Assembly (NCBI RefSeq): GCF_029227855.1
Contig: NZ_CP074356.1
From: Escherichia coli
GTDB lineage: Bacteria; Pseudomonadota; Gammaproteobacteria; Enterobacterales; Enterobacteriaceae
DNA: 64,000 nt
Direction: 5' to 3' (one strand)
Shown: positions 8,506 to 49,078 of the stretch, in pieces
Layout of the letters: each line of letters begins with the position of its first letter
How positions within the stretch are numbered: the stretch's first letter is position 1
Made by a program: the position numbers and the translations under genes
The notes under the pieces: generated by a model
Database searches by the model: none
What the model saw: the letters and a program-made list of their open reading frames with translations, nothing else
Told to the model about the DNA's origin: nothing

Positions 8506-8551
8506 GATTTAATAGATAGTATTCAGTGTATGTATGAGTTCCACACCCATT

Positions 8552-9358
8552 ATGAAAGCATTCTGGCGTAACGCCGCGTTGCTCGCGGTTTCTCTGCTTC
8601 CCTTCTCTTCTGCCAACGCCGTGGCGTTGCAGGCAAAACAGTATGGCGATTTTGATCGCTATGTCCTGGCCCTCTCCTGGCAAACCGGATTTTGCCAGAG
8701 TCAACACGATCGAAATCGTAACGAACGAGATGAATGTCGCCTGCAAACCGAAACGACCAACAAAGCTGATTTTCTGACCGTACATGGTCTATGGCCAGGA
8801 TTGCCTAAATCGGTTGCTGCCCGTGGTGTTGATGAACGCCGCTGGATGCGCTTCGGTTGCGCTACTCGCCCAATCCCGAATCTACCAGAAGCGCGCGCCA
8901 GCCGAATGTGTTCATCGCCGGAAACCGGGTTATCGCTGGAAACGGCCGCTAAACTAAGTGAAGTCATGCCAGGAGCTGGCGGACGTTCCTGCCTGGAACG
9001 CTACGAATATGCCAAACACGGTGCCTGCTTTGGTTTTGATCCAGACGCATACTTCGGCACGATGGTACGCCTGAATCAAGAAGTTAAAGAGAGCGAAGCC
9101 GGAAAATTCCTTGCGGATAACTACGGTAACACAGTGAGCCGCCGTGACTTTGATGCCGCCTTTGCCAAAAGCTGGGGAAAAGAGAACGTGAAAGCAGTTA
9201 AGCTAACGTGCCAGGGTAACCCTGCGTATTTGACTGAAATTCAGATCTCGATCAAAGCTGACGCCATCAACGCTCCGCTTTCTGCCAACTCATTCTTGCC
9301 ACAACCACACCCAGGCAACTGTGGCAAAACCTTTGTGATTGATAAAGCAGGTTATTAA
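8552..9358 (+). CDS. rna: Periplasmic ribonuclease I, 268 aa
   Basis: ORF 8534..9358; start taken at ATG 8552 (MKAFWRNAALLAVSLLPFSSANA... signal peptide). Confidence 0.92.
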   Translation: MKAFWRNAALLAVSLLPFSSANAVALQAKQYGDFDRYVLALSWQTGFCQSQHDRNRNERDECRLQTETTNKADFLTVHGLWPGLPKSVAARGVDERRWMRFGCATRPIPNLPEARASRMCSSPETGLSLETAAKLSEVMPGAGGRSCLERYEYAKHGACFGFDPDAYFGTMVRLNQEVKESEAGKFLADNYGNTVSRRDFDAAFAKSWGKENVKAVKLTCQGNPAYLTEIQISIKADAINAPLSANSFLPQPHPGNCGKTFVIDKAGY

Positions 9359-9536
9359 TCCTCTGATTTACAAAACACGCTAATTCGTCTTCCATAAACC
9401 ATGACGATTAAGATTTATACATAATGCGCTACATTGAGGAATTCCCTGAATGTGACGCAAATCACTTCAAAGAGTGAGCAACAGTCAGTATCATCATGTG
9501 AGTTAAACCCTCGCCGCCTGACGGTGAGGGTTTTCT

Positions 9537-10248
9537 TGTGCACAGAAAACCCCCAGCTAGGCTGGGGGTTCCGGAAAGCTTTCAGCTTTGAGCCTGTTAT
9601 TAAAACCCCTTTTGATTTGTTAAAACACCTTGCGGTCTGGCAACTGCAAGTGTCAAACAAGAAATCAAAAGGGGGTCCCAATGGGGAACGAAAAGAGCTT
9701 AGCGCACACCCGATGGAACTGTAAATATCACATAGTTTTTGCGCCAAAATACCGAAGACAGGTGTTCTACAGAGAGAAGCGTAGAGCAATAGGCAGTATT
9801 TTGAGAAAGCTGTGTGAGTGGAAAAGCGTACGGATTCTGGAAGCTGAATGCTGTGCAGATCATATCCATATGCTTGTGGAGATCCCGCCTAAAATGAGCG
9901 TATCCGGGTTTATGGGATATCTGAAAGGGAAAAGCAGTCTGATGCTTTACGAGCAGTTTGGTGATTTGAAATTCAAATACAGGAACAGGGAGTTCTGGTG
10001 CAGAGGGTACTACGTCGATACAGTGGGTAAGAACACGGCGAAGATACAGGATTACACAAAGCACCAGCTTGAAGAGGATAAAATGGGAGAGCAGTTATCG
10101 ATTCCCTATCCGGGCAGCCCGTTTACGGGCCGTAAGTAACGAAGTTGGATGCAAATGTCAGATCGTGTGCGCCTGTTAGGGCGCGGCTGGTAAGAGAGCC
10201 TTATAGGCGCATTTGAAAAACCTCCGGCTATGCCGGAGGATATTTATT
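9537..10248 (+). mobile_element. IS200 copy 1 (IS200/IS605 family), ~712 bp, boundaries approximate (+/- 5 bp)
   Basis: Boundaries set by where the sequence stops matching the reverse complement of copy 2 (48334..49046). Contains a left-end hairpin CCCCCAGC-TAG-GCTGGGGG, a 152-aa tnpA, and a right-end hairpin CCTCCGGC-TAT-GCCGGAGG. No terminal inverted repeats, as expected for this family. Confidence 0.85.
9681..10139 (+). CDS. tnpA: IS200 transposase TnpA (HUH Y1 transposase), 152 aa
   Basis: ORF 9630..10139; start taken at ATG 9681 (MGNEKSLAHTRWNCKYHIVFAPKYRRQVFY...HIHMLVEIPPK), the IS200 TnpA signature. Confidence 0.9.
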   Translation: MGNEKSLAHTRWNCKYHIVFAPKYRRQVFYREKRRAIGSILRKLCEWKSVRILEAECCADHIHMLVEIPPKMSVSGFMGYLKGKSSLMLYEQFGDLKFKYRNREFWCRGYYVDTVGKNTAKIQDYTKHQLEEDKMGEQLSIPYPGSPFTGRK

Positions 10249-10299
10249 TTTGGGTATGTTTATCTGCGACACTCGCAGTACCGACGACATGGAGTAAAA

Positions 10300-10710
10300 A
10301 TGTCCAGACCAACTATCATCATTAACGACCTGGATGCCGAACGCATCGATATTCTGCTGGAGCAACCCGCCTATGCTGGTTTGCCAATCGCCGACGCGTT
10401 AAACGCAGAGTTGGATCGCGCCCAAATGTGTTCGCCAGAAGAGATGCCACACGACGTGGTGACAATGAACAGCCGGGTTAAATTCCGCAATCTTAGCGAT
10501 GGCGAAGTGCGTGTGCGCACGCTGGTGTATCCGGCAAAAATGACCGACAGCAATACTCAGCTTTCCGTTATGGCTCCGGTAGGTGCCGCACTGCTGGGGC
10601 TGCGCGTTGGCGATTCCATTCACTGGGAACTTCCGGGCGGCGTTGCAACCCACCTTGAAGTGCTGGAACTCGAATACCAGCCAGAAGCTGCTGGCGACTA
10701 CCTGCTTTAA
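10300..10710 (+). CDS. rnk: Regulator of nucleoside diphosphate kinase Rnk (GreA/GreB-like), 136 aa
   Basis: ORF 10213..10710; start taken at ATG 10300 ([28 protein letters not shown]...). Confidence 0.9.
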
Positions 10711-42350: not shown

Positions 42351-42388
42351 TGCTAACGTCAGATTGTTGACAAAGTGCGCGTAGTTCA

Positions 42389-42487
42389 TGCCGGATGCGG
42401 CGTGAACGCCTTATCCGGCCTACAAAAATCTTGCCAATTCAATATATTGCAGGACCACGTAGGCCTGATAAGCGTAGCGCATCAGGC
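42389..42487. repeat. REP/BIME element (two palindromic units) in the fepA-entD spacer
   Basis: GCCGGATGCGGCGTGAACGCCTTATCCGGCCTAC and GTAGGCCTGATAAGCGTAGCGCATCAGGCA are canonical enterobacterial REP palindromic units. Confidence 0.85.
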
Positions 42488-42524
42488 AGTTTTGCGTTTG
42501 TCATCAGTCTCTAATATGGTCGAC

Positions 42525-43145
42525 ATGAAAACTACGCATACCGCCCTCCCCTTTGCCGGAAATACGCTGCATTTTGTTAAGTTCGATCCGGCGAGTTTTT
42601 GTGAGCAGGATTTACTCTGGCTGCCACACTACGCGCAACTGCAACACGCTGGACGTAAACGTAAAACAGAGCATTTAGCCGGACGGATCGCTGCAGTTTA
42701 TGCGCTGCGGGAATATGGCTATAAATGTGTGCCCGCAATCGGCGAGCTACGCCAACCTGTGTGGCCTGCGGGGGTATACGGCAGTATTAGCCACTGTGGG
42801 GCTACGGCATTAGCCGTGGTATCTCGTCAACCGATTGGCATTGATATTGAAGAAATTTTTTCTGCGCAAACAGCGGCAGAATTGACAGACAACATTATTA
42901 CACCAGCAGAACACGAGCGACTCGCAGAATGCGGTTTAACCTTTTCTCTGGCGCTGACACTGGCATTTTCCGCCAAAGAGAGCGCATTTAAGGCAAGCAA
43001 GATACAGGCCGCTCAAGGTTTTCTGGATTATCAGATAATTAGCTGGAATAAACAGCAGATCATCATTCGACTAGAGGATGAGCAGTTTGCTGTGCACTGG
43101 CAGATAAAAGAAAAAATAGTCATAACGCTGTGCCAACACGATTAA
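42525..43145 (+). CDS. entD: Enterobactin synthase 4'-phosphopantetheinyl transferase EntD, 206 aa
   Basis: ORF 42375..43145 reads through the REP element and is over-extended; start taken at ATG 42525 (MKTTHTALPFAGNTLHFVKFDPASF...); an ATG 9 nt upstream (42516, MVDMKTT...) is an alternative. Confidence 0.85.
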   Translation: MKTTHTALPFAGNTLHFVKFDPASFCEQDLLWLPHYAQLQHAGRKRKTEHLAGRIAAVYALREYGYKCVPAIGELRQPVWPAGVYGSISHCGATALAVVSRQPIGIDIEEIFSAQTAAELTDNIITPAEHERLAECGLTFSLALTLAFSAKESAFKASKIQAAQGFLDYQIISWNKQQIIIRLEDEQFAVHWQIKEKIVITLCQHD

Positions 43146-43266
43146 TTGACAACATCTGGTACGATTCGCCCGCAGCCATTACTGACCGCGGGCGAAAGTG
43201 TAAAGCAGGTGCCTTACCATCCTGACCTGACAACCGGATATGCGGGGATTGCTCCCCGCACAACGG

Positions 43267-43419
43267 CTACTTCTTCGGTTCGTAAGCGAGAACAGCCTTA
43301 AACTCAATATTACGTTCCTTCACCGTAAACTCACACAGCGAGTCGCGGACCAGAAGCGTAAATCCCAGCACCGTTAAACACAGCACTATGACTGCCACAA
43401 GGGCATATTTCGTCAGCAT
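43267..43419 (-). CDS. hokE: Hok-family membrane toxin, copy A, 50 aa (Arg at position 25)
   Basis: ORF 43267..43455; Hok start at ATG 43419 with GGAGG Shine-Dalgarno: [50 protein letters not shown]. Confidence 0.8.
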
Positions 43420-43519
43420 GTTTATATTGCCTCCATGCGAAGAAGGGACTACCATCCGAGTTGTTCAGGTTTGGGTAGGTAGCCCCAGGGTTGATAGAAA
43501 TATCGTCCTGGGGCTTCAT
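43331..43519 (-). CDS. mok-like overlapping reading frame of hok copy A, 62 aa
   Basis: ORF track 43331..43519 ([20 protein letters not shown]...), starts upstream of hok and overlaps it out of frame, the arrangement known for mok in hok/sok loci. Confidence 0.4.
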
Positions 43520-43670
43520 CTTTCCAGACCTCAGAGTTAACCTGAAACCGGAAAGCTTCAGGCACCCGCCGTTATCTTACCCTTCCTCAGCAAAATAGCT
43601 GTTTATTTATACAGTGAATCCTGTTTCGGACTTCTGTTGGCAAAACTGATCATTGCCCTTAAAACGACAT

Positions 43671-44139
43671 CGCCCGCAGCCATTGCTGACCGCGGGCGAA
43701 AGTGTAAAGCAGGTGCCTTACCACCCTGACCTGACAACCGGATATGCGGGGATTACTCCCCGCACAACGGCTACTTCTTCGGTTCGTAAGCGAGAACAGC
43801 CTTAAACTCAATATTACGTTCCTTCACCGTAAACTCACACAGCGAGTCTCCGACCAGAAGCGTAAATCCCAGTACCGTCAAACACAGCACTATGACTGCC
43901 ACAAGGGCATATTTCGTCAGCATGTTTATATTGCCTCCATGCGAAGAAGGGACTACCATCCAAATTGTCTGGTTTGGAGTGGCAGCCCCAGGGTTGATAG
44001 AAATATCTCCTGGGGCTTCATCTTTCCAGACCTCAGAGTAAACCTGAAACCGGAAAGCTTCAGGCACCCGCCGTTATCTTACCCTTCCTCAGCAAAATGG
44101 CTGTTTATTTATACAGTGAGTCCTGTTTCGGACTTCTCA
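43671..44139 (-). other. hok/sok-type type I toxin-antitoxin locus, copy B (hokE-like), boundaries approximate
   Basis: Tandem direct repeat of copy A with a 504-bp period; same stem-loops; differs by several substitutions and small indels in the mok/leader region. Confidence 0.8.
43771..43923 (-). CDS. hokE: Hok-family membrane toxin, copy B, 50 aa (Gly at position 25)
   Basis: ORF 43771..44067; Hok start at ATG 43923 with GGAGG Shine-Dalgarno: [50 protein letters not shown]. In this copy the upstream frame is fused in-frame to hok. Confidence 0.8.
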
Positions 44140-44354
44140 CTCCTAATTTGATCAACTGAAGCTGAACCCGTTTTTTTCTGCATGCCTCAATCGTCAAAAT
44201 TCTTCGCCACCAGCCAGCTCTGCCATAACTTGTCACATTGCAAAAGTAGCCAAATTGCTTCAGTCACCATCACCAAAAAAAAGAAACATTCCAGAACTTC
44301 CGCATCTCGCCCAGCCGCTCCGACTTCTATACTGAATAGAAAACGCCAACATAA

Positions 44355-45482
<1,128 letters not shown>

Positions 45483-47035: not shown

Positions 47036-48331
<1,296 letters not shown>

Positions 48332-48333
48332 TT

Positions 48334-49046
48334 AATAAATATCCTCCGGCATAGCCGGAGGTTTTTCAAATGCGCCTATAAGGCTCTCTTACCAGCCGCG
48401 CCCTAACAGGCGCACACGATCTGACATTTGCATCCAACTTCGTTACTTACGGCCCGTAAACGGGCTGCCCGGATAGGGAATCGATAACTGCTCTCCCATT
48501 TTATCCTCTTCAAGCTGGTGCTTTATGTAATCCTGTATCTTCGCCGTGTTCTTACCCACTGTATCGACGTAGTACCCTCTGCACCAGAACTCCCTGTTCC
48601 TGTATTTGAATTTCAAATCACCAAACTGCTCGTAAAGCATCAGACTGCTTTTCCCTTTCAGATATCCCATAAACCCGGATACGCTCATTTTGGGCGGGAT
48701 CTCCACAAGCATATGGATATGATCTGCACAGCATTCAGCTTCCAGAATCCGTACGCTTTTCCACTCACACAGCTTTCTCAAAATACTGCCTATTGCTCTA
48801 CGCTTCTCTCTGTAGAACACCTGTCTTCGGTATTTTGGCGCAAAAACTATGTGATATTTACAGTTCCATCGGGTGTGCGCTAAGCTCTTTTCGTTCCCCA
48901 TTGGGACCCCCTTTTGATTTCTTGTTTGACACTTGCAGTTGCCAGACCGCAAAGTGTTTTAACAAATCAAAAGGGGTTTTAATAACTGGCTCAAAGCTGA
49001 AAGCTTTCCGGAACCCCCAGCCTAGCTGGGGGTTTTCTGTGCACAA
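48334..49046 (-). mobile_element. IS200 copy 2 (IS200/IS605 family), ~713 bp, inverted relative to copy 1; boundaries approximate
   Basis: Reverse complement matches copy 1 over its full length; I saw one mismatch in the noncoding left part plus one TnpA codon difference. Begins 3 bp after the ybdG stop; its other end abuts the pheP terminator hairpin. Confidence 0.85.
48443..48901 (-). CDS. tnpA: IS200 transposase TnpA, 152 aa
   Basis: ORF 48443..48952; start taken at the ATG at 48901 (MGNEKSLAHTRWNCKYHIVFAPKYRR...); differs from copy 1 at one residue (Ile versus Thr in ...KIQDY[I/T]KHQ...). Confidence 0.9.
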   Translation of the reverse strand: MGNEKSLAHTRWNCKYHIVFAPKYRRQVFYREKRRAIGSILRKLCEWKSVRILEAECCADHIHMLVEIPPKMSVSGFMGYLKGKSSLMLYEQFGDLKFKYRNREFWCRGYYVDTVGKNTAKIQDYIKHQLEEDKMGEQLSIPYPGSPFTGRK

Positions 49047-49078
49047 AAAAACCGCTCTCATCGAATGGATGAGAGCGG
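49044..49078 (-). terminator. Rho-independent terminator of pheP (minus strand)
   Basis: CCGCTCTCATC-GAATG-GATGAGAGCGG hairpin followed on the minus strand by a 7-nt U-run; a degenerate REP-like palindrome lies between it and the pheP stop. Confidence 0.65.

Follow-up and report, generated by a model that had tools for sequence, protein, structure and literature searches.

IS200C insertions in an Escherichia coli genome lie at the T-tracts of host terminator hairpins, a probable target preference of the IS200 group

Introduction

How does a small transposon come to lie, twice within one stretch of DNA, directly behind a transcription terminator? The question is raised by 64,000 nucleotides of an Escherichia coli genome (assembly GCF_029227855.1, contig NZ_CP074356.1), here called the window, which carry two copies of the insertion sequence (IS) IS200C: one in the spacer between rna and rnk, the other between ybdG and pheP. 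In both cases the first base of the element follows the T-tract of a GC-rich hairpin. Do these hairpins belong to the host or to the element? Is their position a matter of chance? And does the transposition machinery choose such sites, or does selection retain the insertions that happen to lie there?

Comparison with empty sites shows that the hairpins are host DNA, and surveys of genomes and metagenomes find the same arrangement at about 170 independent junctions. We consider it probable, at roughly 75%, that the machinery of the IS200 group directly targets a hairpin followed by a T-tail, with the hairpin acting as a strong enhancer and not as an absolute requirement. This estimate is drawn from sequence comparison.

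Two junctions with one anatomy

A self-comparison of the window reveals a 720-nt inverted repeat (9529-10248 against 48334-49053, 99% identity). When both copies are aligned together with their flanks, the common sequence runs from ...TTGTGCACAGAAAACCCCC to ...GGAGGATATTTATT, and the copies share 99% identity across 711 bp. The right-end boundary, ...TATT|, is fixed by the variable next bases at 11 other sites. The two elements and their left junctions are laid out as follows.

9538-10248, plus strand: IS200C copy 1, 711 bp, GTGCACAG...ATATTTATT, between rna (8534-9358) and rnk (10300-10710)
9505-9533, plus strand: host hairpin at site 1, predicted terminator stem of the rnk leader, AAACCCTCGCCG-cctga-CGGTGAGGGTTT, 12 bp with a 5-nt loop, G/C core at 9508-9530
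9531-9537, plus strand: T-tail at site 1, TTTTCTT; insertion point after 9537, IS begins at G9538
48334-49044, minus strand: IS200C copy 2, 711 bp, with the ybdG stop codon (48329-48331) on one side and the pheP terminator on the other
49078-49052, minus strand: host hairpin at site 2, predicted pheP terminator, CCGCTCTCATC-cattc-GATGAGAGCGG, 11 bp with a 5-nt loop
49051-49045, minus strand: T-tail at site 2, TTTTTTT; insertion point after 49045 on the minus strand, IS begins at G49044

Both host hairpins are GC-rich stem-loops with a T/U-tract directly after the stem and are thus predicted intrinsic terminators (z about -5). The RNA of site 1 folds with -21.6 kcal/mol (z = -5.1) and that of site 2 with -22.5 kcal/mol (z = -5.05); none of 200 shuffled sequences folded equally well in either case. 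A terminator scan flags the site-2 hairpin on both strands. It lies 31 nt past the pheP stop codon and is bidirectional, being common to the convergent gene ybdG. The site-1 hairpin was not listed by the scan and rests on folding; the miss is probably due to an A:T extension of the stem that uses up part of the tail. The two tails, TTTTCTT and TTTTTTT, both match the consensus TTTNTT derived below.

Empty sites identify the hairpins as host DNA

The joined flanks of both sites match some 5400 E. coli genomes as one unbroken piece, and the site-1 region is present in 5421 of 5426 genomes. In the empty site 1 (locus L001) the sequence reads ...GGTGAGGGTTTTCTTTTGGGTATG..., and in the empty site 2 (locus L002) ...GATGAGAGCGGTTTTTTTAATTACTG..., each with hairpin and T-run intact. 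Since the hairpins are present in strains free of the IS, they are host DNA, and the element lies within or at the end of a pre-existing host T-run.

The same holds for all five empty-site comparisons, at rnk, pheP, gyrB, rpoS and brnQ: hairpin and T-run are intact and there is no target duplication. At pheP, gyrB and rpoS the insert measures exactly 711 bp. At rnk (window 10249-10251) and brnQ (locus L233 against L244) one T more is found than in the empty site, giving a net insert of 712 bp, which is likely the product of register slippage in the homopolymer T-run, at cleavage or later.

A preliminary description of this DNA, made from the letters of the window, had placed both copies directly 3' of a hairpin and T-run with the first IS base after the T-tract, and had identified the structure at the left end of copy 2 as the rho-independent terminator of pheP. 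Junction reading and folds bear out both statements. The comparison with empty sites that it named as the way to check its reading finds the hairpins host-borne and the insertion at the end of the T-run. Only the distance of copy 2 from the ybdG stop needs correction, from 3 bp to 2 nt (right end at 48334, stop at 48329-48331).

Occupied sites are rare. Only 2 of 5422 genomes have the IS at site 1, and no more than 22 of 5403 have it at site 2. Because the insertions are rare and the copies 99% identical, both are, on this comparison, recent and lineage-specific, and there has been little time for long-term selection to act on them.

The arrangement is near-universal among IS200-like junctions

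To gauge how general this anatomy is, three samples were assembled. For the genome sample, representative genomes were scanned for the left-end hairpin CCCCCAGCNNGGCTGGGGG, and unrelated palindromes were filtered out. The matches listed amount to at least 120 loci before that filtering and include 79 unique IS200-like left junctions. The matches listed came from taxa other than E. coli, Salmonella and Yersinia; they include Vibrio, Mailhella and other Desulfovibrionaceae-like metagenome-assembled genomes (MAGs), an uncultured Bacillota MAG, Oxalobacter, Peptococcaceae, several Enterobacterales and others. As the second sample, metagenomes were scanned with a left end of the E. coli type, which yielded 108 loci with 78 distinct left flanks. 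The third sample consists of 12 annotated E. coli records, which represent 11 distinct sites.

A junction was counted as having a hairpin when the minimum free energy (MFE) was <= -12 kcal/mol and the 3' foot of the stem lay <= 9 nt from the junction. A laxer cut-off (MFE <= -10 kcal/mol) passed 16-29% of control positions, and the stricter cut-off with controls outside open reading frames (ORFs) was used instead. By this measure 75 of the 79 unique genome-sample junctions, counted among the matches listed, carry a hairpin. Control positions matched for their T-run and taken outside long ORFs at the same loci do so in 117 of 1392 cases (8%; inside ORFs also 8%), a difference with a binomial p of about 1e-75.

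In the metagenome sample a GC hairpin followed by a T-tail precedes the element in 78/78 distinct flanks, and the same is true of 11/11 named E. coli sites (ydcH, brnQ, gyrB, rpoS, pgm, carB, an ail/lom prophage gene, a DUF2514 gene, the ymgK region, a hypothetical gene and a plasmid rpn gene). Taken together, about 95-100% of some 170 independent junctions show hairpin and T-tail, and without exception the junctions surveyed have the left end of the element, not the right, next to the T-tail. A co-oriented long ORF stops <= 150 nt upstream in 55 of 73 metagenome junctions (median 53 nt), so most of these hairpins are probably real gene-end terminators.

A T-rich target at a defined distance from the stem

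What exactly is the element inserted into? In the metagenome set the junction is set by the IS sequence, independent of the flank, and the base composition before the element can be read directly. T occurs at position -1 in 100% of the flanks, at -2 in 99%, at -3 in 67% (any base), at -4 in 90%, at -5 in 97%, at -6 in 76% and at -7 in 55%. Genome and metagenome sets together give 85-90% T at -4 and 94-97% T at -5. Upstream of the tail the flank becomes a GC-rich stem. The commonest tail length is 6-7 nt, and the insertion point lies within the tail, 5-9 nt from the stem. As judged from these flanks, the target is a GC hairpin, then a tail of 6-7 nt with the consensus TTTNTT, then the IS.

This consensus has a counterpart within the element itself: the final six bases of the right end, TTTATT, fit TTTNTT. 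Both hairpins of the IS, at the left and at the right end, are preceded by an A-run, and guide (AAAA) and target are invariant among the families found. For the related element IS608 it has been described that the four bases 5' of the foot of the left-end hairpin (AAAG) read the target TTAC (PMC5027513).

Several loci in the surveys show further arrangements of these ends. At L111 (around position 143, minus strand) an IS200-like left end directly follows the right end of another copy (CCACCGGCTATGCCGGTGGGGCCCCTTT|GGTTAAAAG), a tandem arrangement that is consistent with a right end serving as target. L021, L022 and L033, from Mangrovibacter and Dickeya, are solo relics in which a host terminator and T-run are followed by GTGCACAGAAAA (GTCTATAGAAAA in L033); here the left-end hairpin is all that is recognisable, with unrelated sequence beyond. 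L047, L075, L076, L107, L122, L123 and L025 share the CCCCCAGCTAGGCTGGGGG hairpin (CCCCCAGCGAGGCTGGGGG in L075), followed for example by ATGTTTATT or TATTTCTT. Its place in L047 is downstream of tnpA, and the CCCCCAGCTAGGCTGGGGG hairpin appears to be the right-end hairpin of more distant IS200 relatives.

Targeting or selection?

How might such a site be chosen? Each IS200C entered a host intrinsic terminator at the far end of its T-tract and left no duplicated target bases. The transposition machinery would strongly prefer, on the strand that becomes the top strand of the IS, a GC-rich stem-loop with a TTTNTT tail that ends 6-7 nt on. By analogy with the AAAG/TTAC pair of IS608, the A-run 5' of the left-end hairpin (GAAAA|CCCCC) may act as the guide that reads the T-rich tail. 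The adjacent hairpin might raise the use of the target by keeping the tail single-stranded beside a duplex. Alternatively, a paused termination complex or the lagging-strand template could expose the tail. The element's right end is likewise a hairpin followed by ...TTTATT|, so that a host terminator would be a structural mimic of it.

Two observations bear on the role of the hairpin. Next to its target, the transposase TnpA of IS608 accepts duplex DNA on the 5' side only (PMC5027513), which fits a stem in that position. Furthermore, the insertion point coincides with the RNA release point of intrinsic terminators, so that single-stranded DNA might come from the paused bubble with its non-template T-tract as well as from the lagging-strand template.

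The most serious competitor of direct targeting holds that only a short T-rich motif of 4-5 nt is recognised and that the association with hairpins arose by later selection: insertions behind terminators are harmless and their transposase expression is low, so these are the ones that persist. A recent preprint interprets the enrichment of terminators upstream of insertion sequences, strongest in the IS200/IS605 family, in just this way, as limiting transposase expression (10.1101/2025.07.22.666184). The canonical model of transposition has no need of a hairpin at the target (PMC5027513), and junctions that lack one do exist, if rarely.

The numbers are nevertheless difficult to reconcile with selection as the sole cause. 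A hairpin is found at 8% of the T-run-matched non-coding sites as opposed to 95-100% of the junctions, and selection would have to purge more than 99% of all other intergenic insertions. Non-coding T-rich sites without a hairpin are about 12 times commoner than those with one, yet they are hardly ever used. The insertion point is also fixed in the tail, 5-9 nt from the stem, and not scattered anywhere past terminators. In the window, both insertions are recent (among about 5400 genomes, 2 have the first and at most 22 the second, and the copies are 99% identical), and IS200 already has a terminator of its own at its left end (PMC4513863). Finally, site 1 is no safe site, as the insertion parts rnk from its leader. 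We thus regard an origin by selection on a plain T-rich target as unlikely.

Direct targeting of the hairpin and its tail has to face a number of points that weigh against it. The support for a hairpin requirement is wholly comparative. From one host hairpin to the next, stem length, loop and sequence differ greatly, which speaks against a specific binding by TnpA such as that to the element's own ends; in the canonical integration complex both hairpin sites of the TnpA dimer are already filled by the left and right ends (PMC5027513). Four junctions (L089, L058, L014 and L019) have a T-rich tail without a convincing hairpin, and the hairpin is therefore not absolutely required. The motif itself calls for some caution: although the genome-set logo matches that of the metagenomes, its 100% T at -1 and -2 is there by construction, the junction having been located by requiring TT. 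Moreover, the invariant TT before the IS can be assigned from the sequence neither to the target nor to the element, given that the right end also ends in TT.

With these points in mind, direct targeting with the hairpin as enhancer still accounts best for the junctions. A bolder version would have elements of the IS200 group recognise any intrinsic terminator as a structured target, with the hairpin mechanistically required, either because the terminator mimics the right end or because a termination-paused bubble or the lagging-strand template offers the tail beside a folded stem. This we hold to be possible, at slightly less than even odds. If it were true, IS200 would be the DNA-transposon counterpart of group IIC introns and a natural terminator-targeting safe-harbour system, and its target choice would go past the 4-5 nt guide-and-target rule of IS608 and ISDra2. 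A true hairpin requirement would also explain why IS200 is so benign and persistent, make insertion sites predictable genome-wide, and suggest a route for terminator-directed DNA insertion with low disruption.

It had been proposed for the window that the junctions fit the hairpin-guided target choice of IS200/IS605 transposases. The non-random choice of target is upheld by the roughly 170 junctions, but it does not follow from the published mechanism, in which the hairpins bound by TnpA are those of the element (PMC5027513). The target hairpin is thus an empirical property of the IS200 subgroup and not a consequence of the known mechanism.

Two other explanations fare far worse. That the hairpins are part of the element or travelled with it, as the subterminal hairpins of IS200/IS605 elements and the terminator-like right end might suggest, is ruled out by the empty-site comparisons: both hairpins are unchanged in IS-free genomes and in thousands of E. 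coli genomes, that of site 1 is part of a curated host RNA family (RF01771), and the flanking hairpin sequence differs at each of the approximately 170 junctions. Coincidence in a terminator-rich genome, which two copies in one window might allow, is equally hard to believe and is ruled out by the surveys with their identical anatomy at every one of these sites but a few; with the ISs removed, 0.11% of the window positions on both strands combine a T-rich tail ending in TT with a hairpin within 9 nt, and two random insertions would both qualify with a probability of about 1e-6, or about 3e-4 if TT positions only are considered.

Probable consequences for rnk, pheP and ybdG

What do the insertions do to the genes around them? 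Site 1 is best understood from the following features.

9434-9542, plus strand: Enterobacteria rnk leader, Rfam RF01771, 118.1 bits (gathering score 50), match over the full model (positions 1-109)
10300-10710, plus strand: rnk coding region, now 763 bp past the leader terminator as against about 50 bp before

The hairpin and U-tract of site 1 are the 3' terminator stem of this leader, 147 nt past the rna stop and about 50 nt before rnk. In the window the last ~5 model positions of the leader, UUCUUUUGG, are replaced by the IS-derived UUCUUGUGCA, while in the empty site L001 the leader is intact at 505-613 (124.9 bits), 45 nt upstream of the rnk coding region. By its match to the family, the hairpin is a predicted attenuator-type terminator and not a gene 3' end. 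The preliminary description had seen each insertion exactly at the 3' end of a transcript; this is sound for site 2, 31 nt past the pheP stop, but at site 1 the structure is the rnk leader terminator (RF01771, 118 bits) and not the 3' end of rna.

Copy 1 would cut rnk off from its leader and promoter, and rnk is probably silenced or deregulated in this lineage. The window scan found no promoter-like site between the IS and rnk, and this, together with 711 bp that include a left-end terminator reported to be bidirectional, makes a loss or deregulation of rnk expression likely.

Termination itself seems to be less affected. After insertion the stem of each host terminator is still there, along with the first 7 bases of its T-tract, and for this reason termination at the leader and at pheP is probably little changed. 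For ybdG, whose ORF ends at 48331, the situation is a different one.

48343-48361, plus strand: right-end hairpin of copy 2 in the sense direction of ybdG, terminator-like, with the tail TTTTTCAAAT; starts 11 nt past the ybdG stop

Read in antisense, the right-end hairpin with its TTTTTC would likely replace the terminator shared by pheP and ybdG for ybdG transcripts, and tnpA is likely to be doubly shielded from read-through. The expectation that the insertions could alter termination or read-through is therefore half right: leader and pheP termination are probably unchanged, with stem and 7 T kept, whereas rnk is cut off from its leader and ybdG gains a predicted terminator.

The elements and their surroundings

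The assignment of both elements to IS200C can be followed from the parts of copy 1.

9548-9570, plus strand: left-end subterminal hairpin, GAAAA just 5', fold -18.7 kcal/mol
9681-10139, plus strand: tnpA, Y1 (HUH) transposase of 152 aa, match to PF01797 Y1_Tnp
10221-10248, plus strand: right end, hairpin CCTCCGGC-tat-GCCGGAGG (10221-10239) with the 9-nt tail ATATTTATT

The sole ORF in each copy encodes the 152-aa Y1 transposase; the elements have tnpA only, without tnpB. The protein matches the single-tyrosine family PF01797 at 126 bits (cut-off 23; E = 9.7e-37), from position 2 to 121 of a profile of 121. Other strains have identical loci, for which the RefSeq name is "IS200/IS605-like element IS200C family transposase". 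The termini, GTGCACAG... and ...ATATTTATT, form no inverted repeats, with a subterminal hairpin at each end instead. On the left, the hairpin corresponds to the one described for IS200 at nt 12-34, which is reported to be a bidirectional terminator (PMC4513863). The right-end hairpin is preceded by GAAAAA, so that the antisense strand reads hairpin plus TTTTTC; this layout is kept in relatives, whose right-end tails likewise end in TT. Both elements show all the testable features of the family and are bona fide IS200C of the IS200 group within IS200/IS605.

The Rfam family STnc490, an Hfq-binding small RNA of IS200, scores 145 bits (gathering score 56) at 9548-9671, where the match runs along the sense strand of the tnpA 5' untranslated region (UTR). 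As art200/STnc490 is described as antisense there, the model may represent an RNA derived from the 5' UTR.

Of the 5426 complete E. coli genomes, 3096 carry sequence resembling IS200C; the median is 1 place per genome and the maximum 35. Strain JNEC-KY178, the closest match to the window, has 24 such places. The high copy numbers in some genomes indicate lineage-specific bursts.

The orientation relative to replication was approached indirectly, by GC skew, Chi sites and FtsK-orienting polar sequences (KOPS) on flanks of 4-14 kb. The minus strand of the window is rich in G, Chi and KOPS (GC skew -0.031 on the plus strand; plus to minus, Chi 7:16 and KOPS 2:7), which places the top strand of copy 2 on the lagging-strand template and that of copy 1 on the leading-strand template. 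The copies are 38 kb apart in opposite orientation and cannot both be on the lagging-strand template. Among 56 metagenome flanks the top strand of the IS lies on the G-rich strand in a ratio of 38:17 (p = 0.01), and KOPS give 37:8. This suggests the lagging-strand preference known for the family, partly confounded with gene orientation. For strand-specific, single-strand 'peel and paste' transposition, this bias and the constant placement of the left end at the T-tail are indirect evidence.

The window holds one further repeat, at 43166-44154 in the spacer between an entD-like ORF (42375-43145) and a ybdK-like ORF (44364-45482). It consists of two tandem direct units, each about 500 bp long, with a spacing of 502-504; they are 97% identical over 299 nt and 93% over 147 nt.

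Comparison with known systems

Measured against the IS200 and IS200C elements known from Salmonella and E. coli, the two copies are the same in structure. Each spans about 710 bp and has just one Y1 gene; its ends form no inverted repeats, and its target is not duplicated. Also shared are the hairpin terminator on the left, the STnc490/art200 region and the hairpin on the right (PMC4513863). There is no structural difference; what sets the window copies apart is their position at two lineage-specific sites. For this genome the finding is ordinary, namely two recent IS200C insertions at the usual type of site.

The association of the IS200 group with terminators is already known in kind. It was reportedly first described for IS1541 of Yersinia pestis, a close relative of IS200, which was found inserted downstream of genes, with terminator-like stem-loops at 8 of 14 sites that were proposed as hot spots (Odaert et al. 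1998, J Bacteriol 180:178; reference 73 of PMC4513863). Compared with this, the association described here is near-universal (95-100%) and extends across phyla, spacing and the TTTNTT motif are defined, and empty sites provide the proof; Yersinia lies outside our sample. The preprint 'Unwelcome guests: characterizing the ecological niche of insertion sequences' found terminator-like sequences over-represented just upstream of insertion sequences, most strongly for IS200/IS605 (10.1101/2025.07.22.666184). In contrast to the junctions presented here, this is a statistic at the level of families, which partly counts terminators inside the IS and comes without junction motif, spacing or empty sites.

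What the survey adds is the near-universality across phyla, the TTTNTT motif with its spacing from the stem, the resemblance between target and right end, and the recognition of the site-1 hairpin as the rnk leader terminator. A loosely reported association thereby becomes a sharp and testable rule, which the current model of IS200/IS605 recognition does not explain.

In that model, IS608 and ISDra2 insert with their left end 3' of a short motif and without duplication, a guide reads the target, and the lagging-strand template is preferred (PMC5027513). Both use plain tetra- or pentanucleotides (TTAC, TTGAT) as targets, and a nearby hairpin is not reported to be needed, whereas the target of IS200C is T-rich, is found 6-7 nt past the 3' side of a host stem and looks like the right end of the element itself.

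By comparison of landing sites, the nearest functional analogue lies outside the DNA transposons altogether. Group IIC introns (bacterial class C) typically lie just downstream of terminator motifs, that is, an inverted repeat followed by T's (PMC1702495). The window elements are not such introns: their only ORF is the Y1 transposase, and the Rfam scan of the window returned no intron family. The two systems share the landing site and what appears to be a safe-harbour logic, and they arrive there by different means. Group IIC introns rely on a ribozyme and a reverse transcriptase, with the intron RNA or protein reading the stem-loop, while IS200C is a DNA transposon that is moved by a Y1 HUH enzyme.

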